A DNA stretch of 64,000 nucleotides from Promethearchaeota archaeon. Lineage in GTDB: Archaea; Asgardarchaeota; Lokiarchaeia; Sigyniarchaeales; SOKP01. The DNA lies in contig RDOE01000006.1 of NCBI GenBank assembly GCA_011364975.1, forward strand, positions 1-64,000, written 5' to 3'. Of the stretch, positions 3,849-63,150 are shown piece by piece. Position 1 is the stretch's first letter, and every line of letters starts with the position of its first letter. Below the pieces are notes generated by a model. It saw only the letters and a list, made by a program, of their open reading frames with translations, had not been told where the DNA came from and did not search any database. Position numbers and translations under genes: made by a program.

Positions 3849-4529
3849 TTATAATCTTAATACATTAGTTAATCTCATCATTTCTGGTCCAGTACATTCT
3901 AAACCAAAAATTCCACTAGTATCATTTACAGAAGCCCCCGAAGATAAATAAGGAATCCCACGATTTACTGTGGACACGTCAGTTTCATCTACTTTCAAAA
4001 TAGAAGTAATTTTTTCTATTTCGTCATCATTCGTTAAAGGGTGAACTAAACAACCGTTATTATTTACTAAGCCAATTGAACCTGGGAGATAATTATCTGC
4101 AAATTCATAAATTGTAACCTCAACTCCTAGGGTATCTTCAATTTCTTTTCTATAATCTTTTAAAAATGAGCTAATTATTGCACCTTTATCATTACATAAG
4201 ATTAAATTGCCGAATGCATTATCGATAGATTTTAAAACACCAATTCGGTAGTCATTGTTAAGTTTTTCCGTGTAAGTCTTTAAATTTGTTAATTCATCGT
4301 CTCTAATTATATGAGGAACAATAATCCCATTTTTATTACTTGCTGTATAGACTCCAATCAATGTAGAATTATTGATTGAAAAGGGAAATAAAGGCACTCC
4401 TAAAGCAGTCTTTATTTTTTTCTCCGCAGATTTGATTAAAGTTGATGGATATAGACCAAATAAGTTATTTAGTGCAATATATACACCAACTGAATTTCTT
4501 CCAAATAATTGATATTTTAATATAGTCAT
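3849..4529 (-). CDS. eif6: Translation initiation factor aIF6/eIF6
   Basis: LIGVY..SNKNGIIVP, GNLILCNDKGA, TVNRGIPY, TGPEMMR motifs. Confidence 0.96.
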   Translation of the reverse strand: MTILKYQLFGRNSVGVYIALNNLFGLYPSTLIKSAEKKIKTALGVPLFPFSINNSTLIGVYTASNKNGIIVPHIIRDDELTNLKTYTEKLNNDYRIGVLKSIDNAFGNLILCNDKGAIISSFLKDYRKEIEDTLGVEVTIYEFADNYLPGSIGLVNNNGCLVHPLTNDDEIEKITSILKVDETDVSTVNRGIPYLSSGASVNDTSGIFGLECTGPEMMRLTNVLRL

Positions 4530-4665
4530 ATAATTAAAATGTAAAACTTAGTATTGGATATAGAAAGTTTCAAAAAATAAATATTTTATTAAAACTGGGT
4601 TATTTTCGTGAATATTTCCGTAATTAGAGATATCTTTATAAGTAAAATTATATGAATTATAGAAT

Positions 4666-6912
4666 ATGATTAACTGGATTATTGCTTTTTACTATTTTTT
4701 AAACACCTTTGGTTTTTTAAACCTTGAGCAAATGCTTATACAAAATCTTCCCCTCTTATTGATTTGCCGTGGAATTTATATCATTACATATTACTTTAAT
4801 TATGAAAAGGATTATCTTAAAGAATTAAGAGGAGATGAGCAGTTATTCACAAAAAAGGAAGTTTATTATTTTAGCTTCAAACAACTTTTACTAATCTTAT
4901 ATGGGATATTATTTACTCCTATTGCTGTGTTTATTGCTTTTTATTCCCTATTAATAGGGGGGCATTATCTAAAAAGTGTAGGAAATAAAATTAATCGGAA
5001 AATACTAAAGATAATCGGGATTATTACCTACTTTTTCTCTCCATTGATTGGAATATTCTATTTCACTTTTATTTCTCCTAACTACTACTCTATTGCAGCT
5101 GTAGGTATTGGTTTGCTTGCTTTTTTATATTATGGATTGAAAAATTCAAAATTGTCGCTTCAAACTCTAATAGATAAATATACTAAACGCAAAATTAATA
5201 AAATCCCTAAACTTGCGAGTTATATTTTGTTTATAATTATTCTTGCGTTTCCTACTACTCTTATCATTGGAACTGCAGTATATAATCCTCAACCTAAATA
5301 TACCTTTAAGGTGCCAATGAGAGATGATGTTGAATTAGCTACTGATGTTTACTTTGCTCCAGGATCATTTGGGGCACCTCGTCCCGTTATTCTGATAAGA
5401 ACTCCATATGGTAAATCTGGTTGGGCCAATGATTTATATCTTCCAATCTACTCTATACAAGATTACCATGTCGTAATACAAGATCTTAGAGGAACTGGTG
5501 ATTCAGAAGGAGGGGGAAGCTACTTGCTTTTTGTAAATTCATATCTAGATGGTGTAGACACCATCAATTGGATTCTCAACCAAAATTGGTGCAATGGAAA
5601 AATCGCAAGTGCAGGTGTTTCCGCGTTATGTATTAATGAGTACTTCTACGCTGGAATGGGCCCTGATGGCCTTGTTGCTCAACAACTATGGTTTGGTACA
5701 CCTGAATTATTTGATCATGCGATATTTCAAGGATCGTATCATAAATCCTCAGTAGAAACTTGGATCTCTAGTACTTCGCCAACCAACGCTCAATATCAAA
5801 TTGATACCCTTTTTACAACCATACCAAAGAATGAAGTATTATATAATTCCACATCATTATCTATACCTCTTGGACCACACTATTCTAATATATCTGTTTA
5901 TGGAATTCATGTTGGAGGATGGTATGATCATTTCCTTCAAGGAACGCTTGATGGATATATAGGATATGATGATTACGGTAATTCCAGAGCAAAAGGCCAC
6001 CAAAAATTAATAATGGGCCCTTGGACACATGGTTCAGTCTATGGTGGGAAACAAGGAGAATTAACGTATCCAGAAAATTCAAATGGTTTTAACTTACTTC
6101 TCGATTGGGAAACAAAAGTTTTTGATGATGCTCTTTTAGGAATACCAACTGATTGGGATAATGCTCGAGTCGCTTATTATTTGATGGGAGATGTTGATAG
6201 TCCTTCAAATCAATGGAATTATTGGAGATACGCTTATGATTGGCCTTTGGATCACGTAGATGATGAATGGTTTTTTAATGCTGATGGTAGTTTAAGCAAA
6301 ATATCTCCGGGTGTAATTAATAAAAACTTCTCATATCTCTTTGATCCAAGATTTCCCGTTCCAAACCTTGGTGGTCAAAACCAACCCTTCGATTTAGCGG
6401 GGCCTATGGATCAATCTTCTATTGAGACTCGATCAGATGTTATAATTTTTGAGACCCCAGCTCTGACTGATGCTGTTGAAATAGTAGGAAGAATCTGGGG
6501 TCATTTATATATTGCATCAAATTGTTCTGATACTGATTTCACTATTAAACTTACGGATGTATATCCTAACGGAAGAAGTATGTTAATAACAGATGGTTCC
6601 TTAACAGTTAGATTTCGAGACAATTATTCTACAGAATTATTAATGTCTGGTAATGTGAATGATGTCTATGAAATATTAATCGATTGCTGGTCAACAGCTT
6701 ATACTTTTGCTCCAGGTCATAAAATTAGAATCGCAATTTCTAGTTCAAATTATCCTCGTTTTGCAACAAATCCAAATACAGGAGCACCTTTAGCAAGAGA
6801 ATACTTAACATCCTATATTGCTAATAATACTTTACTTACTGGTCCAAAATATAATTCTAGTATCATATTGCCAAGGTTAGTAAATATAAGCAGTACGCAT
6901 ATTATATATTGA
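4666..6912 (+). CDS. CocE/NonD family serine hydrolase with N-terminal multi-TM anchor
   Basis: MRDDVELATDVY, RTPYGK, QDLRGTGDSEG, nucleophile region GVSA, GGWYD, GPWTH, SSSNYPRF; about 200 aa hydrophobic N-terminus. Confidence 0.92.
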   Translation: MINWIIAFYYFLNTFGFLNLEQMLIQNLPLLLICRGIYIITYYFNYEKDYLKELRGDEQLFTKKEVYYFSFKQLLLILYGILFTPIAVFIAFYSLLIGGHYLKSVGNKINRKILKIIGIITYFFSPLIGIFYFTFISPNYYSIAAVGIGLLAFLYYGLKNSKLSLQTLIDKYTKRKINKIPKLASYILFIIILAFPTTLIIGTAVYNPQPKYTFKVPMRDDVELATDVYFAPGSFGAPRPVILIRTPYGKSGWANDLYLPIYSIQDYHVVIQDLRGTGDSEGGGSYLLFVNSYLDGVDTINWILNQNWCNGKIASAGVSALCINEYFYAGMGPDGLVAQQLWFGTPELFDHAIFQGSYHKSSVETWISSTSPTNAQYQIDTLFTTIPKNEVLYNSTSLSIPLGPHYSNISVYGIHVGGWYDHFLQGTLDGYIGYDDYGNSRAKGHQKLIMGPWTHGSVYGGKQGELTYPENSNGFNLLLDWETKVFDDALLGIPTDWDNARVAYYLMGDVDSPSNQWNYWRYAYDWPLDHVDDEWFFNADGSLSKISPGVINKNFSYLFDPRFPVPNLGGQNQPFDLAGPMDQSSIETRSDVIIFETPALTDAVEIVGRIWGHLYIASNCSDTDFTIKLTDVYPNGRSMLITDGSLTVRFRDNYSTELLMSGNVNDVYEILIDCWSTAYTFAPGHKIRIAISSSNYPRFATNPNTGAPLAREYLTSYIANNTLLTGPKYNSSIILPRLVNISSTHIIY

Positions 6913-6956
6913 ACTTTAAGTTAAAGATAAGATATAAAGCTTTATTTTCTTTCTCT

Positions 6957-7151
6957 TTAATCTATCATTTTTTTAAATTCCGCTTCATTAATAAACAAAA
7001 CTCCTAATTTTCTCGCCTTTTGAAATTCTTCAGATTCGTTACCTGAATTACTGGTGACAAAATACCAAAGATCATTAGTAATATCCTCTCGAATAACTCC
7101 ACCGCTTTCTTTTACTCTCTTTTCAGCTTCTTCTTTTGTGATAGTCTTCAA
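6957..7151 (-). pseudogene. Stand-alone or remnant BRCT domain resembling the LigA/RFC C-terminal BRCT
   Basis: TKEEAEKRVKESGG...KARKLGVLFINEAEF matches the BRCT consensus but lacks the first beta strand; TTG start. Confidence 0.6.
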
Positions 7152-7312
7152 ATCTTGAGAGATATAAAACTTAATTAAAGATAAATCTGCTATCCATCCT
7201 CACCAAAATTAGTATTGATCTAATTAAGTATATTGTTGAAAAATCTAAACTTAAAATAAGAAGACTATATAAAATTTTTAATTTGTTGAGGATCATAAAG
7301 CAATTAATAAAC

Positions 7313-50980: not shown

Positions 50981-51793
50981 ATGGCGAAAAGGAAAAAATG
51001 GCTTATTATGCCAGTAATCCATTCAAAATTCAACGATAATAAACTTGAGGAAGCTCTCATCAATAAATCAAGAGATCTCTTAACTAAAGAACAAGGATTT
51101 GTTCCATCTTTTATATTTCTTTCAGGTAGTTTCTTCGATATTAAAGGATTTGTTTATACAGGACTTCGAGTTTGGAAGGGCGCAGTGAAACCTTCTGATT
51201 CAGATGAGGGTAGACGACCGTTATTAGAAGCAACGTTTGCCTCATTATCTGTATATCTTAGCTCACTTTTAGCGCTTCAATCAGATTTTTACTTCGCTTA
51301 CGATGAAATTAAAGATATCCTTCTAGATAAAAAAAGAGAAGATTTGTGGACAATCGTTTCCGAAAAGTTACCATTTATATCATTACCCCCTAAAGAAATG
51401 TATGGAAATCAAGTTTCTCCAATATCCCCTTATTACGTTATTGAACAAGATGATGAACTTATTTTAGGTGAAATTTATCCTTCTGCTTATTTAACTAAAA
51501 TTATTGACTCAATTAAGACCAGATTTTTTGTATTTTTTCAATATCAAGGATACTCTGCCTTTGGATTCTTTGATTCTCTCCCTGAGCGAACCAACTTCGG
51601 ATTTGAAGAAAGAGCAAGAAATTTTGATAATGATCCTTCACCAGAAAATTTAAAGAAGTATGCTGAAAATGCAAAAAATTTGAAGGAAGTATTAATTGCT
51701 TTAATTGAAGCACACAATAATGCTTATCTTGAGCAATTTTTAATTCCAGACTATGAATTACTATTAAACAAACTACTTGAGGGAGAAGCGTAA
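50981..51793 (+). CDS. Hypothetical protein translationally coupled to the small GTPase
   Basis: Stop overlaps the GTPase start (TAATG at 51791-51795). Confidence 0.65.
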   Translation: MAKRKKWLIMPVIHSKFNDNKLEEALINKSRDLLTKEQGFVPSFIFLSGSFFDIKGFVYTGLRVWKGAVKPSDSDEGRRPLLEATFASLSVYLSSLLALQSDFYFAYDEIKDILLDKKREDLWTIVSEKLPFISLPPKEMYGNQVSPISPYYVIEQDDELILGEIYPSAYLTKIIDSIKTRFFVFFQYQGYSAFGFFDSLPERTNFGFEERARNFDNDPSPENLKKYAENAKNLKEVLIALIEAHNNAYLEQFLIPDYELLLNKLLEGEA

Positions 51794-52428
51794 TGGTAAA
51801 CATTGGTTTATTAGGAGATATAAGTGTGGGAAAAACGTCAATCTTGCGATTGTTTGTAAGATACCTAAATAAGGGAGAAATTGAAAATGTACAAGGTGGA
51901 TTGAAATGTACGGTTGTTAAAACCGATTTCTCAGGTGAAGCTACGGTTCCTGGAGGAAATAAGGATGATTCTTTGAATGAAAAGGAAACTAAGACCATTC
52001 ATCCAAATAGAGTGGTATTTAGAGAAGATACATCAGGGAAAGCTCATACGATTTTCGCACCAGGCGGTGATAGACAGCGTGCAGTTGTCAAGATGGGTAT
52101 AATTACAATTTCTCGTATTGCTACTCAGATAATAGCTGTATTTTCCCTAGATAGAGAGTTAGAAAGGCAATTTGAATTCTTTAATGATGTTAGGTTCTTT
52201 CCAGACAAGATTTATGTTTGTATCAATAAAATAGACTTACTTGAAGGCGATAGAAATAAAAAACTCGAGGAATTGAGGGCAAAAATTACCACATTCTTTA
52301 GCAAAAGAAAAATAGCAATCAATGAATTTTTTGATACCTGCGGAGAAACAGTTGAAAATTTTGAAGAAGTACAAAAATTTAATAATCGTGTAGCAGAAAT
52401 GATTTTAGAAATCACTACCACACATTAA
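51793..52428 (+). CDS. Atypical small GTPase (Ras-like superfamily)
   Basis: G1 GDISVGKT, G2-like TKTIHP, G3 variant FAPGG (no Asp), G4 NKID, G5-like DTCG. Confidence 0.85.
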   Translation: MVNIGLLGDISVGKTSILRLFVRYLNKGEIENVQGGLKCTVVKTDFSGEATVPGGNKDDSLNEKETKTIHPNRVVFREDTSGKAHTIFAPGGDRQRAVVKMGIITISRIATQIIAVFSLDRELERQFEFFNDVRFFPDKIYVCINKIDLLEGDRNKKLEELRAKITTFFSKRKIAINEFFDTCGETVENFEEVQKFNNRVAEMILEITTTH

Positions 52429-52452: not shown

Positions 52453-52968
52453 TCAATCTTTTACTTTTAAAGCGGTATTTAATAATAATCTAGCAATATC
52501 TAATTGATATCCAATTAGTGGAGTTAATTTAACTTGCTCTGTTTCTTTTCTTATTTCAATATATCCTAATACCTCTAATTCTTTTAAATCATCTTTTATA
52601 TATTTCTTATTACGTGCCTTCTGTATTTCTGATATGTATGCATTTCCTGATGATTTTAAACAATATATAAGAGTACAAAACAAAGTTGCGGCTAAACTTG
52701 GTTTTCCTTCAAAAGGATTAGCAGAAATCAATTCAGAAATTTCTGATTCAAATCTTATATACCAATAAGAATTTAAAGGGTTATACCTAATCTGCATTCC
52801 AATTGGCTGAAGATAATTTGATAACTGTACTAATAATTTTTGAAAATATATTGAACTATTTTTATCTTTAGCACCTAATACTTCTAAAATTTCTTCTTTA
52901 GGAGCACCAAATTGACCATTATATCCTTTTTTACTTAATAAATTCATTAATAAAGATATTTCATTCAT
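52453..52968 (-). CDS. KITE-like tandem winged-helix protein (Nse1/Nse3/ScpB-like)
   Basis: LLVQLSNYLQPIGMQIR (first wH) and DLKELEVLGYIEI..VKLTP (second wH); last gene of the SMC operon. Confidence 0.65.
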   Translation of the reverse strand: MNEISLLMNLLSKKGYNGQFGAPKEEILEVLGAKDKNSSIYFQKLLVQLSNYLQPIGMQIRYNPLNSYWYIRFESEISELISANPFEGKPSLAATLFCTLIYCLKSSGNAYISEIQKARNKKYIKDDLKELEVLGYIEIRKETEQVKLTPLIGYQLDIARLLLNTALKVKD

Positions 52969-52978
52969 AATTTTCTCC

Positions 52979-53629
52979 TCATAAATATAGCATATTAGTT
53001 TCTTTATGATATTTTATTCTCCCTTGCTGTAGAAGGTGTAACAAATAAATAAATTTCTCATAAATCTTAATCTGATCATTTTCCCCATCGAAGATTTGTT
53101 CAAATAAACACGGGAGTTTATCCCTAATTCCATCAAGAAAAATACTTAATTTTTCAATAAATTGCTGTTCTGGTATTTCAATTAAAAATTGTTCATTTGA
53201 AATTGCCCTTATAAGATGTTCAATTTCTAAATTAGATTCTTTCTCTTTACAGTACCGATTTTTAGCATAAGTTAAAAAATTTAAGGATAAATCCTCAATA
53301 TAAAAATTTTTATACCAGCAATGGTCAAATAAGCTACAAATTTCTTTATCTTCCGGTTTTTTCTTTAAGAAATTTATTATTTTCTGATCATCATCTAATA
53401 ATCTTAATAGTTTTTTTAATTCTTCAAATTTTTGCTCTAGAATTTCACAAGCTTTTTTATAGGTAGCAGAATAATTCTCTATATTAAAAATGTTAATAGA
53501 ATTCTCTATTTCATTAAAAAGGACACTTAATTCTAATTCTAATAAGGTAATTTTACCTGAAGTTATATCCTTCTTAATCATTTCAATCTTATTATCTAAT
53601 TCTAAAGACATATCCTTATGATTAATCAA
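52979..53629 (-). CDS. Kleisin-like protein (ScpA/Nse4-like)
   Basis: C-terminal FEQIF..IYEKFIYLLHLLQQGRI matches the kleisin C-terminal winged helix; N-terminal ACEILEQK helix; immediately downstream of SMC. Confidence 0.72.
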   Translation of the reverse strand: MINHKDMSLELDNKIEMIKKDITSGKITLLELELSVLFNEIENSINIFNIENYSATYKKACEILEQKFEELKKLLRLLDDDQKIINFLKKKPEDKEICSLFDHCWYKNFYIEDLSLNFLTYAKNRYCKEKESNLEIEHLIRAISNEQFLIEIPEQQFIEKLSIFLDGIRDKLPCLFEQIFDGENDQIKIYEKFIYLLHLLQQGRIKYHKETNMLYL

Positions 53630-53631
53630 TA

Positions 53632-56600
53632 TTATTCACTCACAAACTTTGGAATAAAAATGGTAGACGCTTCATTTTTCCCTACTCTTGCAACTCCTAT
53701 CAACTTATCAGCTAACTTATATAAAATGTTTGAGGATTTTGGGAGAAACATAAGCAATTGGATTGCATTCTTATCCAGAGTCGATTTAATCATTTGGTAT
53801 GACGCTTCAGCATTCCTCTCATCTAAAAACATTCCAGCCTCATCAAACATACATAAAGGTGATGGTTTCATTTCTTGCAGTGATAAAATTAAATTAATTG
53901 AAATCATCGAAATTTGTCCACCACTTAATGCAGTAAATGTTTTTAGTTGGTCTTTTGAAGTTGCAGCTTTAATTTCTATTCCTAAATCCTCAAAATTGCC
54001 AATTAAACTCAATAAACAAAACGCTTTAATATTCGAATCTTCAAATCTTTTATTTACCTTTAAATTTAAATCTTCCAGAGCTAATTTAAATCGCTTATAA
54101 TAGGTCTCCTCAAGTTTATCTTCTGTGTTAATAGCAGCTTTAATGTCAATATCAAGTTTCTTTTGATTTCTTGTTATTTGTTTTAAATTACTCAATATTT
54201 GTTCTCGTTCGATTAAAATGGATTCATCCACGTCATAGTATTTTAATAATTTTTTATTAATTTCTAAAACATCCTTTTCAATCTCCTCAACAGGTCGCAT
54301 AGTAATAGAACTAAATTTAGAGAAATTTCCAATTTTTGTTTCAATTCGTTCTAAATCTTCCATTTTATGCTTTAATTGATGAATAAGCGAAGAATGGTTT
54401 ATATTTTCTTGTTCTAAAGACAATTTCAATTGCAAATCATATTTGTTTAATGTATTTTTTTCATTATTTAATTCCACTTTATTATCTTTAAGTTTTTTCA
54501 AATAGCTTTCAATTTTTTCTAGTTCTTCCTCGATTTTTTCTAGATTTTTGTATATTTCAAACGCTTTTTTGTCTAATTTTTTAAAATTTTCCTCTTTTCC
54601 CCTAAAATCATTTTTAAATGTTTGTAACGAATTGCTAGATATAAGCATTTTTTCAATTAATTCTTGATTTACTTGAAATATTTCGCTTAATTTCAAATTC
54701 CATTTAGTAATTTCTTTGTTTTTAGTATTAAGCTCTATAGGTATTTCTTTAAGCCTATCATTCCATTTGAAAAAATTCGGTTCTTTCTGTTTTTCTAATT
54801 CTTTTATATGAGAATTGAATTGATCAACTTTTTTCTTTATATTAGAGTTAGATTCCTCCAAGGAATAAATTAAGTTATATAATTTATTTTTCTTTTCTGT
54901 TAATCGTTGTTTCTGAGTAAAATGGTAGAGTAGATCATTAAAAATTTCTTTCTTTTTATAAATACTTCTCTGAATCTCATCCATTTTGGATTGATTAGTC
55001 CTTAAAATATCAAATTTATTGTTTATATCAATTATTTCTCGTTCTAATATTTCTGCTTGTTCCTTTTGAGTACCAGTACTTAATAAACCCTTTAATCTTT
55101 TAATATGTGGGCTTTCATAAACATACTTATAGGAAACAATCTGTTCCCCCTTTAAAGTTACACACTTACCATTAAAATTATCATGAGTATATAGATATCT
55201 TCCAGATTGATAATCTTTAACAACAACACAATTTTTAACCTTGGAATATATTACTTTTTGAATATCCAAATCATTATTTAATATTTTAATAAGCTGAACT
55301 AAGTAACCTATTAACCCATCAGCTCTCATCTCGGGATATGAAGTGAGATGCACATTTTTAGGGAGATAGATATTACAATATGCATTGTATTTGTTCTTCA
55401 ACTTTCTAAAAAGATTTAGACTATCCCAATCCTTAGCAATAAAGCTGTGGAGTAATCTCTCACCAAGGACAGATTCAATGGCATAACTTAGTTCATCATT
55501 ATAACTTAAATATTCGATAATAGGACCCTTTACCTTATCACTTAATCCTCTTTTACTTATTTCTTCTTTTAAAACATTAATATTAGCAGGTAAGACAATT
55601 CTACGTTCTTTTAGAGCATTTTGTAAATCCTTTAACTTATTTATTTTTTTTGTTCTCTCATAATTTAACTGCTCAAGTTCAACTTTAGTATCGAATAGTT
55701 TTAAGCTTGAATCTTTAAGCTCCTCATCAAATTGTTTCATTAAATCCTTAGTTGGGTTATCTAAGAACCACTTATTATTTTCCAATTTATGATTGATATC
55801 TTCTAAACTTTGAAATATATCGTTAATATCTTTTTCAGTATTATTTACAACTTCATTATTTTCAATAATATTTTTTTCTAAAGCATCTTTTTGCATTAAA
55901 AGTCCATTATACTCCTCCAAGAATTCACGGTTTTCTTTAACTTTCTTAGTTAATTGATTTTGTTCGTCTATAAGGGTCTCTAATTTATTTTTTAACAAAT
56001 CTTTTTCTTTGTTAGCGGTTTCAATTTCCTGTTCTATTTTCTTCTTTTGATTTTCTAAATTTTTATATTCTTTTTCTTTTATCACAATTTTTTCTGAATA
56101 CTGGTCAAGATCTTGTTTCATTATGATTTTTTCTTTTTGCCAGACTTGAATTTGATTCAAATAATCTTTTTTTTTAAAAGTATACTCTCCCATATCTAAA
56201 GTAATTCTACTTATATCATCCTCAATAATAGAAATTTTCTCTTCTACATTCTCTATTTGCTTTATATTATGATTAATATCATCTTTTAATTGATAGATTA
56301 TTTCTTCAGCTTTCTTTACATGTCTTTCAAGGTCTTCAATCTCGCTCTTTAATTTTTCTTTATTTGCCCATAGAAGCTCATCTTCATATTCTTGTTTCTC
56401 ATTTAGCAGTTTCTTTTTTTGTTCTAGTCTTATTAATTTTGGTTTTAATAATTCTAAATTAAAATTTAATGTATTCCTTTTAGTAATAAGGCTTTCAAAA
56501 TCTCTTTTAAGCCTATATACACTGTCCTTTTGTTGAAGAATTTCTTCACGTAAACTTTTAAGCCCAATACCTTCCTCCAAAAAGTTACAGAGTTCTACTG

Positions 56601-57096
56601 GCTTAAGATTTTTAATTGCATCAATTTTACCTTGACTTACAAAAGCAAAGTGGTTATCAGGATTGATCTGTAAATTCGTAACAAGCTTTTGAAGGTCATT
56701 AGCATGAAATTTACTGAATTTTGCATAACCCTTTCTTTGAATTTCATAATAAGGCGCTTTTCCACGAAGAACTATCCTTCTGATTTTGATTAATTCTTCG
56801 TTATATTGAATATGTAACTCCACCATTGCATGATTTTGGCCATTTCTTATAAAATCTGACCATTTTTTATAACGATCGTCTCTTTCATTGCTTCCAAGAA
56901 CAAATTTAATCGCTTGAAAAATTGAGGTTTTTCCACTCCAGTTAGGACCAATTATTAAAATAAGTCTTGGTGATTCACTTCTACTAGTTCCAGTAAAATC
57001 TACTTCATCTCTTTGGAAAGAGAGGAAATTTTCTAAGATTAGTTTTTTTAAATGGATATTATCGCTCTGATTTAAGGATGAAGTAACCGTTTTAAT
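53632..57096 (-). CDS. SMC protein, SMC5/6-related (up to 1154 aa; non-canonical start)
   Basis: Walker A GPNWSGKT and LENFLSF lie in frame upstream of the tracked ATG 56826; Q-loop FVSQG, hinge (KGPIIEYL..AIESVLG..CVTLKGE), signature LSGGQ, Walker B MFDE, long coiled coils. Confidence 0.92.
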   Translation of the reverse strand: MKTVTSSLNQSDNIHLKKLILENFLSFQRDEVDFTGTSRSESPRLILIIGPNWSGKTSIFQAIKFVLGSNERDDRYKKWSDFIRNGQNHAMVELHIQYNEELIKIRRIVLRGKAPYYEIQRKGYAKFSKFHANDLQKLVTNLQINPDNHFAFVSQGKIDAIKNLKPVELCNFLEEGIGLKSLREEILQQKDSVYRLKRDFESLITKRNTLNFNLELLKPKLIRLEQKKKLLNEKQEYEDELLWANKEKLKSEIEDLERHVKKAEEIIYQLKDDINHNIKQIENVEEKISIIEDDISRITLDMGEYTFKKKDYLNQIQVWQKEKIIMKQDLDQYSEKIVIKEKEYKNLENQKKKIEQEIETANKEKDLLKNKLETLIDEQNQLTKKVKENREFLEEYNGLLMQKDALEKNIIENNEVVNNTEKDINDIFQSLEDINHKLENNKWFLDNPTKDLMKQFDEELKDSSLKLFDTKVELEQLNYERTKKINKLKDLQNALKERRIVLPANINVLKEEISKRGLSDKVKGPIIEYLSYNDELSYAIESVLGERLLHSFIAKDWDSLNLFRKLKNKYNAYCNIYLPKNVHLTSYPEMRADGLIGYLVQLIKILNNDLDIQKVIYSKVKNCVVVKDYQSGRYLYTHDNFNGKCVTLKGEQIVSYKYVYESPHIKRLKGLLSTGTQKEQAEILEREIIDINNKFDILRTNQSKMDEIQRSIYKKKEIFNDLLYHFTQKQRLTEKKNKLYNLIYSLEESNSNIKKKVDQFNSHIKELEKQKEPNFFKWNDRLKEIPIELNTKNKEITKWNLKLSEIFQVNQELIEKMLISSNSLQTFKNDFRGKEENFKKLDKKAFEIYKNLEKIEEELEKIESYLKKLKDNKVELNNEKNTLNKYDLQLKLSLEQENINHSSLIHQLKHKMEDLERIETKIGNFSKFSSITMRPVEEIEKDVLEINKKLLKYYDVDESILIEREQILSNLKQITRNQKKLDIDIKAAINTEDKLEETYYKRFKLALEDLNLKVNKRFEDSNIKAFCLLSLIGNFEDLGIEIKAATSKDQLKTFTALSGGQISMISINLILSLQEMKPSPLCMFDEAGMFLDERNAEASYQMIKSTLDKNAIQLLMFLPKSSNILYKLADKLIGVARVGKNEASTIFIPKFVSE

Positions 57097-57108
57097 TCAC
57101 CACTTCTA

Positions 57109-58392
57109 TTAATCATACCCAAAAACTTTTTTTATTTGATCAATTCGTTTCTTTCCTTTCTCAAGACGAATTTGCGCCATTTTAGGGTGTTCATTTAAAA
57201 GAAAGGGATATTTTCCCAACAATTTTCTATCATTATCTTCTAGTACTTCATTCTTGCTTAATTTTTCAATAATTATAATTAGTTCATTATAATTTTTAGA
57301 AGCAGCATCTTCATAGAGTTGTTCTAGCATAAATTCAGAAATATTTTCATTTTGAAAATGATTGATGTAATCAGTGGTAATTTTTTCTTGTTCCTCAAGT
57401 GAGATCATCCCCTTCTTTGAGTTTACATTAAAGGGAGAATCTTCTGATTGCTCAACATTAATGTAAGTTCTCTTGTTAGATTTATATTTAATTGCGGACG
57501 ATGGAATAAACTCTCCCTCATCAATTATATTCACCAAAATATCTGTAATTTCGTTACTTAAATTATTCAATTCAGAATTTAAAAAATGTTTAAAGATACC
57601 TACTTTTAAAAGCTGAGATAAATCCTCAACTTCCCAATCTTGCGTTTTTTCAACTATAGTATCAATATCGAATACAATTTTCGGGTTATTTTCTGAAAAG
57701 TTTTTTAATAGCTCCTGCCGTTCAATATTATCTAATATAGGTATCTTTATGAACAAATCAAAAATATAATATATTTTATTTTGATTTGCTAAGATATCAT
57801 CATAACAATTATTAATCCAAATCAATATGGTGTGATTTTTAATGAAAAAATCAGAATTTTTGAAATAGTTAATAAACCTGGAAAGAAAGTATTTTTCTGT
57901 AAAAAAATAGGGTGGAAACTCACGTTCATTAAAAATTAAAATCTTAAAATTATTTTTTGAATCTCCTAAATTATTATTTTCAATAGAAGATTGTTGAGAG
58001 ATTTCCTTTTTTATATTTTTATTTGATTGATTAATTATAAATTCTTCAATAACTATAGGAAAATCATCTATAAAGTCTTTCGGATTACTAAATATTTCAT
58101 TATAATTCAATTCTATTAATTTTAACTGATAGTTTTTAGAAATCAGCTTTAAGTAAAATTCGATATCACTACCTGGATTGATGTTTATTAATAGGCAACC
58201 CTTCGGGTTTATATATCTTAAATAATCGACACTAACAGTATCTTCGAAATTGGTTAAAATGATTTTTAAATAATTGATTATTGTATTATATTTCTTTCGA
58301 TAAAATATATCTGCTTCATCAATATTGATTTCGGTTGATGAAGTTATTCGAAAATATTTCACTTGGTTCAAATCTTCTTTCGATCTTTCCAT
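57109..58392 (-). CDS. Degenerate AAA+ (Cdc48/PAN-like) domain protein
   Basis: PKGCLLININPGSDI at the Walker A position (no GKT), ILIFNE at Walker B, IFDLFIKIPILDNIERQELL..DIDTIVEKTQDWEVEDL lid region. Confidence 0.65.
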   Translation of the reverse strand: MERSKEDLNQVKYFRITSSTEINIDEADIFYRKKYNTIINYLKIILTNFEDTVSVDYLRYINPKGCLLININPGSDIEFYLKLISKNYQLKLIELNYNEIFSNPKDFIDDFPIVIEEFIINQSNKNIKKEISQQSSIENNNLGDSKNNFKILIFNEREFPPYFFTEKYFLSRFINYFKNSDFFIKNHTILIWINNCYDDILANQNKIYYIFDLFIKIPILDNIERQELLKNFSENNPKIVFDIDTIVEKTQDWEVEDLSQLLKVGIFKHFLNSELNNLSNEITDILVNIIDEGEFIPSSAIKYKSNKRTYINVEQSEDSPFNVNSKKGMISLEEQEKITTDYINHFQNENISEFMLEQLYEDAASKNYNELIIIIEKLSKNEVLEDNDRKLLGKYPFLLNEHPKMAQIRLEKGKKRIDQIKKVFGYD

Positions 58393-58665: not shown

Positions 58666-58920
58666 TTATTTTTTACCTTCCTTACCATAAATACAAAACC
58701 AGCCGCCTTCTAGTTCATACTTCTCAAAGATCCCACAACCAAAGCAGAAACATCCATTATCTTTTATTTCAGATAAATGCTGGTCTGTTTTTCCCCGTGA
58801 ACAGAAAAGAGCATGTGGTTCTATTTCATTTAACTTATTTGGTTTAAATGAAGGACAAGAACCACAAAATTGGCGACAAACTTTAATAGAATCCTCCGTA
58901 TCGGGGACAGGATCTGGCAT
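58666..58920 (-). CDS. Small Cys-rich protein (DUF2769-like)
   Basis: C..FCGSCPSF, LFCSRGK, GCFCFGC, WFCIYG. Confidence 0.75.
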   Translation of the reverse strand: MPDPVPDTEDSIKVCRQFCGSCPSFKPNKLNEIEPHALFCSRGKTDQHLSEIKDNGCFCFGCGIFEKYELEGGWFCIYGKEGKK

Positions 58921-59094
58921 TATAATCTCTTAAAATTTAATTAATAAAATAGATTTTTAAATCTGATAATTCTCAACTATATTCAAAAGAACTTTATCAC
59001 CATTTAAAGTTAATATTTATAGTTTATTAGTTAAAATTGTAAAGAAGCAGAGTTTAAATTAATTTTCAGAATTGAATGACAACATACTTAGGTT

Positions 59095-59502
59095 TTAGTC
59101 AAATTGCAATTCTTTTTTAATCTGATTTAAATATTGATTGAAATTCTCTTTAAGAAGTGAATAATATGTAAATTTTCCTTTTTTCCAACCACGTATAAGA
59201 TTTAATTTCTCTAACTCTCTTAAATGATGCGAAATAGAAGGCTGAGACTTATCTAAAATTGTTTCCAATTCACATACGCATCTATCTTTATCCTTTAGAA
59301 CGTTTATTATAATTAATCGTTCCCTATTTCCAACTACGCTAAAAAAATCAACTATTTGATTAATTTTAGTATCTGTTTGTAACTCTTTTCCTATTCGCTG
59401 TAAAGATATGAAAAGCGTATTAATATCTTTACATTCATCACAAGAACATAACATTTTTTTTATATCATTTTGTCGTTTAGTTTTAATTTGACGCACCACC
59501 AT
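59095..59502 (-). CDS. arsR: ArsR/SmtB family metalloregulator
   Basis: RLIII..L..DRCVCEL, SQPSISHHLRELE, KKGKFTYYSL; extra N-terminal CSCDEC; divergent from acr3 operon. Confidence 0.9.
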   Translation of the reverse strand: MVVRQIKTKRQNDIKKMLCSCDECKDINTLFISLQRIGKELQTDTKINQIVDFFSVVGNRERLIIINVLKDKDRCVCELETILDKSQPSISHHLRELEKLNLIRGWKKGKFTYYSLLKENFNQYLNQIKKELQFD

Positions 59503-60389: not shown

Positions 60390-61451
60390 ATGGTTGAAGA
60401 GAAATTTGAAAGTGAAGTTAAAGAAAAATTAGAAGAAAAGAAGGACCAAGAATCTCGAAAGATTAATTATTTTGAAAAGTTGCTACCACTCTGGGTCGCA
60501 ATCTGCATTTTCATTGGGATCTTGCTTTCTCAAATGGTACCACAAATTAGCGAAGCGATTGATTCTCTGCAGATTGGTGGTATTTCAATACCTATAGGGA
60601 TTTGTTTATTTTTAATGATGTATCCCGCAATGTTAAACTTACAAGTTTCTGAACTGAAAAAACTAGGTAAAAACCCGAAACCCATTATTTTAACACTTGT
60701 ATCTAATTGGTTAGTAGCGCCATTTGTAGGTCTAGCAATGGTAAACATTTTTCTACCAGGTGATACAGTAGCCATACGTCAATTAAGTGTAGCTATCATT
60801 TTGTTATCAAGTTCGCCTTGTACTGCGATGGTATTAGTATGGGGTTGGATGGCAAAAGGAAATCAAGAACAAAACGTATTAAACACTAGTTTAAATACAA
60901 TTACAATAATTTTTGGATATGTTGGAATGGTCTCTCTTTTAACAGGTATACAAAATATTCCTATTAATACTTGGCTTTTACTTATTTCACTGATTTTTTT
61001 CATTGGTTTACCCTTAGTTTTGGGGATATTATCTAAAAGATTTATTGTAAGATCAAAAGGCTTAGAATGGTTTAATGATACCTATAGACCTTTCGTGGGA
61101 AAAGTATCGATTGTAGCATTATTAACTACCCTAATAGTCTTATTTTCTTTAAATGGAGATGTCTTGATTAATAATCCTGACTTACTTTTACTTGTTTCTA
61201 TACCATTACTGGTCGGGTTTGTTATCGTAGTTGGCTATAATATCTTAATAACAAAGGTTTTTAAACTGAAATACAAAGAAGCGGTAATAACAGTGATTAT
61301 CGGTTCTTCCAGCCATTTTGAAATTGCAATCGCTACCGCCGTTGCAATGTATGGAATTGGATCATTTGCTGCGTTAGGAACAACGATGGGTTTATTTTGG
61401 GAAGTACCTGTGATGTTGAAAAGTTGGATTTTGGAAATAAAGAGTGATTAA
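60390..61451 (+). CDS. acr3: Acr3-family arsenite efflux transporter
   Basis: FEKLLPLWV, LMMYPAM, SPCTAMVLVW, SSHFEIAIATAV, EVPVML. Confidence 0.93.
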   Translation: MVEEKFESEVKEKLEEKKDQESRKINYFEKLLPLWVAICIFIGILLSQMVPQISEAIDSLQIGGISIPIGICLFLMMYPAMLNLQVSELKKLGKNPKPIILTLVSNWLVAPFVGLAMVNIFLPGDTVAIRQLSVAIILLSSSPCTAMVLVWGWMAKGNQEQNVLNTSLNTITIIFGYVGMVSLLTGIQNIPINTWLLLISLIFFIGLPLVLGILSKRFIVRSKGLEWFNDTYRPFVGKVSIVALLTTLIVLFSLNGDVLINNPDLLLLVSIPLLVGFVIVVGYNILITKVFKLKYKEAVITVIIGSSSHFEIAIATAVAMYGIGSFAALGTTMGLFWEVPVMLKSWILEIKSD

Positions 61452-61497
61452 TTAATTTAAACCGATTACAAAAAAACAAAGAGATGAAAGAGATAAA

Positions 61498-63150
61498 GTG
61501 GCAGTAGTCTATATGAAAAAGTTGGAGGAAGAACCTGAAACCTATGATTCTAAATTTACGACGCTAACAAAAGGTGTTAATATAGACGTTCAGAGTTGGA
61601 TCCTGGAAAAGTTTGATACCAGTCAGTCAATTTTAGACATTGGCTGTGGTCCCGGTACTTTAGCAAAAAAATTAGCTTTAATGGGAAATAAAGTCAAAGC
61701 AATCGATATCAATTTCAAAATGATTAAATACGCGATAGATAATTATCCAACTGAAAAGGAAGTCGATCTCTTATACCAAATCGGATCATTTGAAAATCTA
61801 CAGGAGAATTCTGAGCTTTATGACACCGTAATCAGCACATTTATGATTTCAGAGTTAAATCAAATAGAACAACAAATCTTTTTAAGAACAGTGTGGAAAT
61901 TAATTAAAAATAATGGAAGGTTAATAATCGCTGCGGAATTTATACCATCTGGTTTGTGGAAAATTATCTTTAAATTGAAACGATGGTGGTTTAAAAAGAA
62001 GATACATCGACTACGGTTAAGAGGAACTCATATTATTAAACATTTTTTAGACTACCTAAACCCGATAGGATTTGAGATTATGTCTGAAAAACACTGGAAT
62101 CATGGATCCATTAAGGCATTAGAATTGAAAAAGATCCAAAATAACGAGAACAATGAACCAGGATATTATCGGCCTAAAACTAAAAAATTTACTGGTTTCA
62201 AATCTCAAATTAGAATATATCGTTGTCTTTTTACAGGGCAAGTGGATAGAGTGCCAATAGAACCTGGCCTTTATAGAAGCGGTAACCCTACTGAGGAGTC
62301 TCCTATTGTTGTTACAGCTAATTATGAATATACGTATATAAAAGTTATGCGTGATCTTAGAGATTTGGACGCTTGGGTTTTATGCGTTGATTCAAATGGT
62401 ATAAATGTTTGGTGTGCCGCCCGAGGTAATGATTTTGGCAATAAGCAATTAATCGACGCGGTTAATGGAAGTGGAATTGACAAGATTTCGAAAAATAACA
62501 AATTAATTCTTCCACAATTGTCCGCTGGAGGGATATCAATTCCAAAATTAGCTAAGAATTTTCCATTTAAAATTGTATATGGCCCTGTTTGGTCTAAACA
62601 TTTGAAAAAATTTATAGAAAATCGTCCGATAAAAAAACCAGATTCGATGAAACTCGCAAAATTCACATTTTCCCATAGGATCAGAGCTGGAATCACTCAC
62701 ACAACATTCTTATTTCGTAAGATCTTTTTATATCCTCTTTTAGTTTTGTTGCTTTCACTTTTAATACTCAATCAAATTGACAAGTTATGGTGGATTGGAG
62801 AATTAGCAATATGGATAACTTTTTCAAATGCTGTTATAGCAATTTTTTTCCCCTTATCTAAATTTACAAGGAATTTTATAATAAAAAGTTTATTTTTTGG
62901 AATTTTAAATTTGATACTTTTTAGCTTTATTACTTGGTGGATTCATAATTCGCTCATATTTATGTTAACAAATACAGGAATACTTTTTTGGATAAGTTTT
63001 TTTTCTACTATGTCATTTAGTGGATACACGATGGCTACAAATCCAAGAGAAATTCAAAATGAATATCCCATCTTCCGGAAAATAAATATTAGTCTAATAG
63101 TAATTGTGATAATTTTATTAGGATTAAATATAATATTTTTCATAAATTAA
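61498..63150 (+). CDS. Class I SAM methyltransferase fused to HgcA-like corrinoid-binding domain and TM domain
   Basis: N-terminal ILDIGCGPG; central IEPGLYRSGNPTEESPIVVTANYEYT, VDSNGINVWCAARG, LILPQLSAGG, YGPV; C-terminal 4-5 TM helices with SGYT..REI. Confidence 0.9.
   Translation: MAVVYMKKLEEEPETYDSKFTTLTKGVNIDVQSWILEKFDTSQSILDIGCGPGTLAKKLALMGNKVKAIDINFKMIKYAIDNYPTEKEVDLLYQIGSFENLQENSELYDTVISTFMISELNQIEQQIFLRTVWKLIKNNGRLIIAAEFIPSGLWKIIFKLKRWWFKKKIHRLRLRGTHIIKHFLDYLNPIGFEIMSEKHWNHGSIKALELKKIQNNENNEPGYYRPKTKKFTGFKSQIRIYRCLFTGQVDRVPIEPGLYRSGNPTEESPIVVTANYEYTYIKVMRDLRDLDAWVLCVDSNGINVWCAARGNDFGNKQLIDAVNGSGIDKISKNNKLILPQLSAGGISIPKLAKNFPFKIVYGPVWSKHLKKFIENRPIKKPDSMKLAKFTFSHRIRAGITHTTFLFRKIFLYPLLVLLLSLLILNQIDKLWWIGELAIWITFSNAVIAIFFPLSKFTRNFIIKSLFFGILNLILFSFITWWIHNSLIFMLTNTGILFWISFFSTMSFSGYTMATNPREIQNEYPIFRKINISLIVIVIILLGLNIIFFIN

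Follow-up and report, generated by a model that had tools for sequence, protein, structure and literature searches.

A putative second SMC complex of a Lokiarchaeial archaeon, encoded by a conserved operon with a degenerate AAA gene at its head

In this work, we describe a four-gene operon, carried on the minus strand of a 64,000-nucleotide stretch of Lokiarchaeial DNA (the window), whose gene order is kept across the Asgard phylum. The genes, listed in Table 1, encode a degenerate AAA protein, a divergent SMC ATPase, a short kleisin and a kite. That an SMC-kleisin-kite complex is encoded here can be stated with high confidence; the AAA protein is quite likely to be a subunit or a dedicated partner of this complex, and the locus, taken as a whole, is probably the operon of a second SMC holocomplex of this archaeon. 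A specific kinship of the operon with eukaryotic SMC5/6 is nearly evenly balanced, with at most a slight lean in its favour.

Table 1. Genes and features of the SMC operon, in window positions.
Feature	Position	Strand	Description
P0308	57109..58392	-	427 aa; degenerate Cdc48/VAT-type AAA and conserved C-terminal domain of ~85 aa; first gene of the operon
Divergent SMC ATPase	53632..57096	-	1154 aa, counted from the ATT at 57096; N-head, hinge, C-head
SMC 5' part, Walker A region	56826..57096	-	without canonical start codon
P0001	52979..53629	-	216 aa, TTG start; short kleisin with N-terminal helices, linker and C-terminal winged helix
P0002	52453..52968	-	171 aa, ATG start; kite, tandem winged helix

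Inspection of the ORFs in the window bore out the original prediction of three contiguous, co-oriented genes, with gaps of 2 nt between SMC and P0001 and 10 nt between P0001 and P0002, and the three SMC motifs quoted there were all found in the translation. The predicted complex had also been called minimal, wrongly so, because a fourth conserved gene lies at the head of the operon, which spans 52453-58392 and does not start at 57096: P0308 ends 12 nt upstream of the SMC ORF, in the same frame. Within the SMC frame, the first ATG stands at 56826; no GTG or TTG precedes it after the upstream TGA (57097-57099), and the codon at 57096 is ATT. If started at this first ATG, as is the database protein P0003 (1064 aa), the SMC would lose its Walker A; the N-terminus upstream of 56826 is matched in SMC homologues. 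The conserved gene order and the number of homologues, 340 for the SMC at E<=0.001 (at least 53% identical among the 120 matches listed), 66 for P0001 and 171 for P0002, place the operon far beyond chance.

The largest gene had rightly been recognized as an SMC: its product matches Pfam SMC_N (1.1e-17) and SMC_hinge (4e-4), with the hinge at about residues 521-634, and carries a complete set of ABC-ATPase motifs. When aligned across Asgard, the family keeps Walker A, Q-loop, signature motif, Walker B and D-loop, with G50, K56 and Q155 invariant in the N-head alignment (A6) and S114, G116, D141, E142 and D148 in the C-head alignment (A8); conserved as well are the first two of the motifs originally quoted. 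Just after Walker A, the family lacks 8-9 residues; its D-loop is aromatic, and the histidine of the H-loop is replaced by proline. In a tree of 30 Asgard SMCs it forms a clade of its own (split support 1.0, branch length 0.92), apart from canonical Asgard Smc, and the tree roughly parallels the genome families, as expected from vertical inheritance.

For the two small proteins, structural models and Foldseek comparison agree with the predicted kleisin and tandem winged-helix folds. The AF2 model of P0001 (mean pLDDT 74) begins with helices and ends in a winged helix, with a disordered linker between them; its four best Foldseek rows are all kleisins, namely Brn1 and Nse4 (E 0.28-0.63), and VIA aligned it with Nse4 over the whole length (Z 7.0) and with the ScpA C-domain (Z 7.0). 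When compared with solved chains, the Asgard-wide P0001 family profile matched four ScpA C-domain chains (best E 1.4e-3), and not Nse4. All named language-model look-alikes of P0001 are kleisins: the nearest named cluster is archaeal (score 0.91), with Nse4_C present in 18% of its members, and Bathyarchaeota is its commonest phylum. The AF2 model of P0002 (mean pLDDT 86, pTM 0.73) is a tandem winged helix, to which only kites align along the whole length. Foldseek places ScpB first (E 2.3e-4, TM 0.57 to 3w6j_C), followed by JetB (8as8_C, E 2.4e-3), Nse3/Nse1, MAGE and MukE, and the VIA alignments rank ScpB (Z 12.4, rmsd 3.3 A, 150 residues) above Nse1 (Z 10.0, 155 residues). P0001 and P0002 miss the Pfam models PF02616 and PF04079, and no member of either family matches Pfam Nse4_C, MAGE or Nse1; a purely Lokiarchaeial kite profile, on the other hand, reaches two kites (2e-8 and 2.1e-5) which lie above the Pfam ScpB cut-off. 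In a set of 1.84 billion proteins the kite family has only 92 representatives; few of them are named, as Asgard or ScpB, and the family looks restricted to Asgard.

Out of 113 confirmed Lokiarchaeial loci, 80 were kept: the operon is complete in 56, a contig end truncates 22, and in 2 only the kite is present. In other Asgard families, the four genes are complete in 9 of the 15 loci fetched, and in most genomes the operon is single-copy. Among 400 Asgard genomes, the kite was detected in 218 and the C-terminal domain of P0308 in 213, with closely similar figures in family f1 (120 and 121 out of 134), in f3 and f4 (both in 14/14 and 4/4) and in the last three families, pooled (67 and 66 out of 89); both are missing from f13 (31 genomes), f16 (22) and f19 (19). 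Since some of the 400 genomes are kin and thus not independent, the argument from this co-distribution loses some of its weight.

The first gene of the operon encodes a relative of the classic-clade AAA proteins (VAT/Cdc48/p97; PF00004 and PF17862). The P0308 family profile (A3) matched VAT, p97 and Cdc48 AAA domains (E 3.5e-25 for VAT), and PF00004 and AAA_lid_3 were matched by 5 and 3 of the 24 members, respectively. The AAA core and lid are thus recognizable, but only a single AAA module is present; the Walker A GK[ST] is found in none of the 24 aligned members, which have lost both the Lys and the Ser/Thr, and the acidic Walker B pair is absent in most of them. The most conserved part is the added C-terminal domain, of no enzymatic kind. 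Judged by its motifs, P0308 is a Cdc48-derived pseudo-ATPase, predicted to be devoid of the usual ATP binding, and a probable accessory subunit. We found no account, in any paper, of a pseudo-AAA partner of an SMC operon.

The SMC had been predicted to be SMC5/6-like rather than canonical, a claim which stood for the N-head. Here the family profile puts yeast Smc5 first (78.2 bits), with Smc6 at 72.3, Rad50 at 71.6 and Pyrococcus Smc at 61, a narrow spread, from 78 to 61 bits, that partly reflects general divergence. In contrast, a profile built from canonical Asgard Smc as control scores 37.3 bits with Smc5, 52 with Smc6 and 279 with Pyrococcus Smc: the Smc5 score is doubled in the family studied here, and three quarters of the Pyrococcus Smc score are lost. 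The single N-head sequence agrees on Smc5 (44.7 bits), with which the motif following Walker A and the Q-loop context also align ('kkWsdFirngq' in the family, 'KKVEDFIKNGQ' in yeast). This family is the Asgard paralogue most Smc5/Smc6-like in the N-head. The claim did not extend to the C-head, where the third quoted motif lies, and which scores best with Pyrococcus Smc (42.5 bits; Smc6, 23.6; Smc5, 18.0), nor to the kite and the kleisin C-domain, nearest to ScpB and ScpA; moreover, a full-length SMC search at E<=1e-3 matched Smc and Smc1-4, and no Smc5/6. These latter results support a rival explanation, in which the operon would be a fast-evolving, Asgard-specific duplicate of Smc-ScpAB, forming an SMC-kleisin-kite ring devoid of special kinship with SMC5/6, its Smc5-like N-head being due to convergence or to a long-branch effect. 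This explanation, which we consider possible but clearly the less probable one, also agrees with the sequence links of the kite family to Pfam-positive ScpB proteins, with the small size of that family, whose named members are Asgard-only, and with the monophyly of all eukaryotic SMCs, not rejected (p-AU 0.317) in the main text of van Hooff, Raas, Tromer & Eme (bioRxiv 10.1101/2024.01.07.573240). Against it stand, besides the N-head scores and motifs, the Nse4_C content of the kleisin look-alike cluster, to be taken as a lead only, and published trees grouping some Asgard/TACK paralogues with SMC5/6, Nse4 and Nse1/3 (the same preprint; PMC8665677).

Two further alternatives concern the role of the complex and its composition. 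An SMC system akin to Wadjet, Lamassu or MksBEFG, which senses foreign DNA and cuts or silences it in defence or plasmid restriction, would share the SMC, kleisin and kite make-up of JetABC; JetB is found among the fold matches of the kite, and PADLOC reports weak head matches to mad3 (55.7 bits) and LmuB (34.9 bits). We consider it highly improbable: the operon contains no nuclease or Toprim (JetD/MksG) gene, PADLOC assigns no JetA or JetB match to P0001 and P0002, JetC matches do not exceed about 20 bits, the level of coiled coils, and no known defence-system partner was found by PADLOC. The mostly single-copy state of the operon speaks against it too, while the phylum-wide gene order and an SMC tree roughly following the genome families are expected of a housekeeping gene more than of a mobile defence island. 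The complex might, alternatively, have three subunits, and P0308 be a mere conserved neighbour, such as a separate pseudo-AAA adaptor that is co-transcribed: unrelated genes can share operons, and searches with Pfam, NCBIfam, profiles and PADLOC revealed no relative of P0308 among known SMC partners. This appears rather unlikely, given that P0308 adjoins the 5' side of the SMC, at a distance of few bases, in 56 of the 58 Lokiarchaeial loci with room for it, occupies the same position in 9 distant loci of other Asgard, is single-copy and shares the presence/absence pattern of the kite; its C-terminal domain is, in addition, conserved as a docking surface would be.

Like the predicted complex, eukaryotic Smc5/6-Nse1-Nse3-Nse4 (7qcd, 7tve, 7dg2) forms a ring of SMC, kleisin and kite subunits; the N-head profile finds its best solved match in Smc5, and Nse4 and Nse1/Nse3 align along the whole kleisin and kite models. 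Eukaryotes, however, have pairs of SMC and kite genes where the operon has one of each, the kite lacks a RING domain, and Smc, ScpB and ScpA are the better matches of C-head, kite and kleisin C-domain. Smc-ScpAB (B. subtilis, Pyrococcus) has the same architecture and subunit sizes, and also a hinge, besides the likeness of kite and kleisin just mentioned, but the SMC reaches only 187 bits with NCBIfam TIGR02169, whose cut-off is 729, the small subunits miss the corresponding Pfam models, the SMC motifs and clade are distinct and a gene for an AAA-fold partner, always adjoining that of the SMC, is added.

Archaeal 'SMC5/6-related' SMCs were defined by Yoshinaga & Inagaki 2021 (PMC8665677), and the main text of the preprint reports that TACK and Asgard archaea have distinct operons for SMC, kleisin and kite, one of them SMC5/6-related. 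The SMC family found here is most likely the published one, an identity that we infer, since that main text names no Lokiarchaeial species. Shared features are a second, non-canonical SMC in its own operon with kleisin and kite, a host with another SMC system, a presumed SMC homodimer and an N-head closest to Smc5/6. The present kite, in contrast, looks Asgard-restricted and is linked to ScpB rather than to Nse1/3, and the operon is headed by an AAA gene, whereas AAA or Cdc48 genes do not occur in the main text of the preprint.

Based on the textbook architecture of Smc-ScpAB and Smc5/6, two copies of the SMC, taken as homodimeric because the operon holds a single SMC gene, would dimerise at the hinge; the C-terminal winged helix of the kleisin would cap one head and its N-terminal helices bind the neck of the other, with a kite dimer sitting on the linker. 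ATP-driven head engagement would clamp DNA, which may then be entrapped or extruded, and the dead AAA protein, docked through its conserved C-terminal domain, may act as loader or regulator.

In the same genome, C50 carries a long SMC (about 1490 aa), which shares 42% identity with its long counterpart in G138 and 41% with that in G143, a type accompanied by a ScpB-like kite, and no canonical Smc of about 1200 aa was found by tblastn. The two complexes therefore probably share out the tasks of organising the chromosome and of repair or junction control. Operons of this kind have already been published as archaeal relatives of eukaryotic SMC5/6; the ATP-dead AAA gene leading this one appears to be new.

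At this locus lies an operon of four genes, conserved across Asgard archaea, that encodes a predicted second SMC ring complex. Its packed ORFs, separated in order by gaps of 12, 2 and 10 nt, encode an AAA-type protein (P0308), an SMC protein, a kleisin (P0001) and a kite (P0002). The original prediction had described the last three of these genes; they, their gaps and the three SMC motifs quoted with them are every one present in the window sequence or its translation. The window is contig C169 of an assembly of 3.74 Mb in 200 contigs, 99% complete and with about 29% G+C, among whose six-frame ORFs a search with the Lokiarchaeia-only kleisin and kite profiles (A1 and A2) detected no second kleisin or kite of the same family.

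Features of the operon and of its immediate surroundings in the window
Feature	Coordinates	Strand	Description
P0308	57109-58392	-	427 aa
SMC gene	53632-57096	-	ORF
P0001	52979-53629	-	216 aa, TTG start
P0002	52453-52968	-	171 aa
Two genes convergent on operon end	50981-52428	+	270-aa protein without family; 211-aa small GTPase (TIGR00231, E 6.9e-5, below cut-off)
Two genes upstream of operon	58666-59502	-	DUF2769 protein (84 aa, E 2.6e-12); ArsR-type HTH regulator (135 aa, E 6.8e-14)

The reading frame of the SMC gene contains no ATG, GTG or TTG from the stop codon at 57097-57099 down to the ATG at 56826, and a start at the latter would cost the protein its Walker A motif. The database version, P0003, of 1064 aa, is N-terminally truncated exactly as by such a start. 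Since its homologues share the same N-terminus and feature ordinary start codons, the gene is judged from its sequence to be intact, the candidate start being the ATT at position 57096 or a codon close by. In P0004, a close homologue (81% identical), a Leu-coded start is found where the window has TTA. Homologues of the SMC protein number 340 at E<=0.001, with identities of 53-100% among the 120 matches listed, as against 66 for P0001 and 171 for P0002; those bearing a name are, for all three proteins, nearly all from Promethearchaeota, Lokiarchaeia or other Asgard MAGs.

A split ABC ATPase head is recognized in the SMC protein by the Pfam model PF02463 (1.1e-17, over residues 15-1138), and the Walker A, Q-loop, signature, Walker B and D-loop motifs, all present in the window protein, are invariant across the family alignments of the N-head and of the C-head (A6 and A8). 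The hinge, PF06470, is matched at residues 521-634 with E 4e-4 and 21.2 bits, slightly below the sequence cut-off of 22.5 bits, and is annotated on most SMC homologues among the 120 matches listed. From just the head-hinge spacers, of about 345 residues, we infer long antiparallel coiled-coil arms. Rad50 was discarded as a possible identity, the protein having a hinge instead of a zinc hook and scoring at most 54 bits on Rad50 models, whose cut-offs are at least 700.

Up to three SMC types are found in Asgard genomes. The canonical one, of about 1200 aa, scores 692-932 bits on TIGR02169, the model of canonical prokaryotic Smc, and in most cases precedes genes of the size of ScpA and ScpB; a second type reaches about 1490 aa. 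Members of the window's type score 140-280 bits on the same model, the window protein itself 187.1 against a cut-off of 729.4. In a FastTree phylogeny taking in Asgard SMCs only (30 sequences, 1126 columns), this type is set apart from all others by a branch of 0.92 with a FastTree support value of 1.0; branching within it approximately follows genome families, and a deletion of 8-9 residues is common to all its members.

The other SMC of the genome (contig C50, positions 4417-7170, locus L001) is cut by the contig end and belongs to the long type of about 1490 aa, sharing 42% identity over about 850 residues with the long SMC of genome G138 and 41% with that of G143. Its match to TIGR02169 omits model positions 505-669, corresponding to the hinge region. 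Contig C200 carries a Pfam-positive ScpB at its end (61412-62284, locus L009), and that end may adjoin the C50 gene. No canonical Smc of about 1200 aa was found in the window's genome by tblastn; among the 98 genomes of the class at least 90% complete, 10 contain a TIGR02169 match over the cut-off, none of them in the window's genus. Canonical Smc being absent from the genus, the cell therefore has just two SMC systems, and the window complex is one of them. A different Asgard SMC operon was also encountered, at L126 (G128:C3:661000-680000) and L131 (G125:C51), with products of 541 aa, 1192 aa (the SMC, 574 bits on TIGR02169), 225 aa and 166 aa (the kite), and lacking any match to the C-terminal domain of the AAA family.

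For the kleisin P0001 no Pfam or NCBIfam family match was obtained. Its AF2 model (pLDDT 74) features helices at 8-100, a low-confidence stretch at 105-139 and a winged helix at 157-215, which is the layout of a kleisin, with N-terminal helices, a flexible or disordered middle and a C-terminal winged helix. The best four rows of the Foldseek search are kleisins, Brn1 and Nse4, at weak E values of 0.28-0.63. VIA alignments end in a tie below the guide value of Z 8, Nse4, aligned along the full length, and the ScpA C-domain both reaching Z 7.0. Four ScpA C-domain chains are reached by the Asgard-wide profile A5 (E 1.4e-3, 3.5e-3, 0.1 and 0.38), and PF02616 gives a weak match (0.042) in only one of its 21 members; searched against the sequences of solved structures, the Lokiarchaeia-only profile A1 returned nothing relevant. 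Language-model clusters, to be taken only as leads, place nearest to P0001, among the named ones, an archaeal cluster (score 0.91, 187 shared features), whose commonest phylum is Bathyarchaeota and in which Nse4_C is found on 18% of members; the values are 0.82 for eukaryotic Nse4, and 0.83 and 0.81 for ScpA clusters.

The kite P0002 is modelled by AF2 (pLDDT 86) as a tandem winged helix. At E<=1e-3 Foldseek gives six matches to it, every one ScpB or ScpB-like, with JetB, Nse3, Nse1, MAGE and MukE coming thereafter; whole-length VIA alignments are to kites only: ScpB with Z 12.4 and an rmsd of 3.3 A over 150 residues, Nse1 with Z 10.0 and 6.4 A over 155 residues, and a MAGE-G1/NSE1 entry with 9.2. 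The predicted fold of the window kite is thus nearer to ScpB than to Nse1 or Nse3. Against solved-structure sequences the Lokiarchaeia-only kite profile A2 found nothing relevant, and the wide profile A4 generic winged-helix regulators only. ScpB matches from the large A4 search are weak evidence, because A4 includes two kites of the different, ScpB-like operon type, those of L126 and L131. These pass the Pfam ScpB cut-off, yet they are reached by the pure profile A2 as well (2e-8 and 2.1e-5), and it is on A2, not on A4, that the sequence link between kite and ScpB rests. The kite family is a small one: at E<=1e-3 the A4 search brought up 92 representatives from 1.84 billion proteins, the few named members being Asgard proteins or ScpB drawn in by the two ScpB-like rows. 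With Pfam SMC_N and hinge matches for the first, a kleisin-layout model for the second and tandem winged-helix kite matches for the third, the parts that the original prediction had assigned to the three genes all hold.

P0308, taken alone, matches no Pfam or NCBIfam model. The profile of its family (24 members), on the other hand, finds the AAA domains of VAT, p97 and Cdc48 at E 3.5e-25. Active classic AAA ATPases are marked by GxxxxGK[ST] as Walker A and hhhhDE as Walker B. Both motifs are absent from the 24 aligned members, whose P-loop is xPG(T/S)D or worse, in no case with a lysine, and whose Walker B is not DE. The region most conserved is the C-terminal domain, of about 85 residues.

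Gene order was compared in the best 80 of 113 confirmed Lokiarchaeial loci. The order P0308, SMC, kleisin, kite is kept in 56 of them, including one (L083) where 2.8 kb separate kleisin and kite; in another 22 a contig end falls before the missing genes, and in the remaining two, L014 and L043, the kite stands alone at the syntenic site. These lone kites (L014:7986-8525 and L043:6230-6757) have the same downstream GTPase neighbours, the GTPase next to the window operon adjoining the kite in both, and upstream of them no AAA, SMC or kleisin gene is found; one of the two genomes has its SMC and kleisin on a different contig. All four genes were also found in 9 of 15 fetched loci from other Asgard families. 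When one set of 400 genomes of the phylum was searched with both profiles, the kite was detected in 218 and the AAA C-terminal domain in 213, with nearly identical counts family by family and both at zero in the larger families without either. This co-distribution is supportive and does not amount to statistical proof, kin genomes not being independent.

Some irregular loci deserve mention. A fusion of P0308 with the SMC protein, suggested in genomes G225 and G267 by open frames of 1589 and 1563 aa, was rejected, as both loci contain two separate ORFs; in G225 the two genes are in the same frame, with a single TGA between them. Two kite copies are present in several Lokiarchaeial assemblies (G236, G241, G248, G182, G226 and G229), and in the cut loci L011/L061, L013/L036 and L056/L076 the kleisin also occurs in two copies; such assemblies, whose contamination is 4-9%, could hold a duplicated operon or be mixed bins. 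A full Lokiarchaeial four-gene operon (P0011, locus L032) is found in DATKTW010000069.1 under the public label 'Candidatus Nanopelagicaceae bacterium', probably a mislabelled bin.

The original prediction had taken the SMC protein as SMC5/6-like rather than canonical, and the evidence for this is divided between the parts of the complex. The N-head speaks in its favor. Yeast Smc5 is the best solved match of the single N-head (residues 1-200; 44.7 bits) and heads the list for the family profile with 78.2 bits, followed by Smc3 (74.4), a second Smc5 entry (9lwi, 72.5), Smc6 (72.3), Smc2 and Rad50 (71.6), Smc1 (70.9), B. subtilis Smc (63.5) and Pyrococcus Smc (about 61). The ranking changes with a control profile built from nine heads of canonical Asgard Smc, which gives 279 bits for Pyrococcus Smc, 158 for Smc2, 129 for Smc3, 52 for Smc6 and 37 for Smc5. 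Two of the quoted motifs, those in the N-head, align with Smc5 and accompany the 8-9-residue deletion. The C-head, the kite and the C-domain of the kleisin point the other way, to Smc, ScpB and ScpA. The C-head, within which the third quoted motif lies, scores 42.5 bits with Pyrococcus Smc, 23.6 with Smc6 and 18.0 with Smc5. Eukaryotic Smc5/6, too, are not known to have the H-loop histidine, which a proline replaces in the window's SMC family. A full-length SMC search found Smc and Smc1-4, and no Smc5/6 at E<=1e-3. Matches to the Pfam models Nse4_C (PF08743), MAGE (PF01454) and SMC_Nse1 (PF07574) were found neither for the kleisin profiles A1 (51 members, among the matches listed, for 25 of 47 families) and A5 (21 members, all 25 families), nor for the kite profiles A2 (56 members, among the matches listed, for 25 of 31 families) and A4 (23 members, among those listed, for 25 of 51), nor in 14 distant kites; a MAGE language-model cluster at 0.79 is a lead only. 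What had been observed is thus confirmed, and its interpretation partly supported: kinship with SMC5/6 is plausible, as suggested by the N-head and by published trees of clades not directly linked to the window operon.

A role in defence, as in the Wadjet (JetABCD) systems, would be a different reading of the same genes. With PADLOC the matches are generic ones to the SMC head, and neither JetA nor JetB nor a nuclease partner is found: its JetC matches to the SMC protein, of 12-20 bits, fall in the coiled coil, P0001 has no family, and P0002 only a DndH match (0.0056). The operon has neither a fifth gene nor a JetD nuclease gene. The kept gene order and the phylum-wide distribution fit instead a housekeeping role.

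The three-gene core is of an already published kind, SMC5/6-related archaeal operons being in print as phylogenetic inferences. By Yoshinaga and Inagaki (2021, PMC8665677), archaeal SMCs are split into canonical and 'SMC5/6-related' ones, the latter mostly from TACK archaea and also from Asgard. The main text of van Hooff et al. (bioRxiv 10.1101/2024.01.07.573240) describes separate SMC-kleisin-kite operons in TACK and Asgard archaea, a clade of TACK and Asgard kleisins with which Nse4 branches, and a third kite clade, exclusive to Asgard and present in some of its members, that clusters with Nse3; in the same work monophyly of all eukaryotic SMCs could not be rejected (p-AU 0.317). No Lokiarchaeial species is named in that main text, and AAA and Cdc48 have 0 occurrences; its Figure 4D and supplements may bear on the identity of the operon intended and on the fourth gene. 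A dead AAA partner was found neither in that main text nor by a literature search, and is, as far as these searches go, not in print.

The locus adds a concrete, Asgard-wide four-gene unit headed by a dead AAA protein; a graded likeness to SMC5/6, present in the N-head and not in the C-head, the kite or the kleisin C-domain; and a whole genus from which canonical Smc is missing, leaving the window complex as one of two SMC systems. We regard as rather unlikely the full proposal, in which P0308 would be a fourth and obligate subunit that docks via its C-terminal domain and acts as loader or ATPase regulator, and the four-part complex would be the direct archaeal forerunner of SMC5/6. If true, the ancestral SMC5/6 would have had, before eukaryotes, a dedicated regulator that is neither kleisin nor kite, functionally comparable to Nse5/6. 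Were both the kinship and the fourth subunit to hold, this complex, small, homodimeric and with partners in single copy, would offer a tractable model for the loading and action on DNA of SMC5/6-type complexes.
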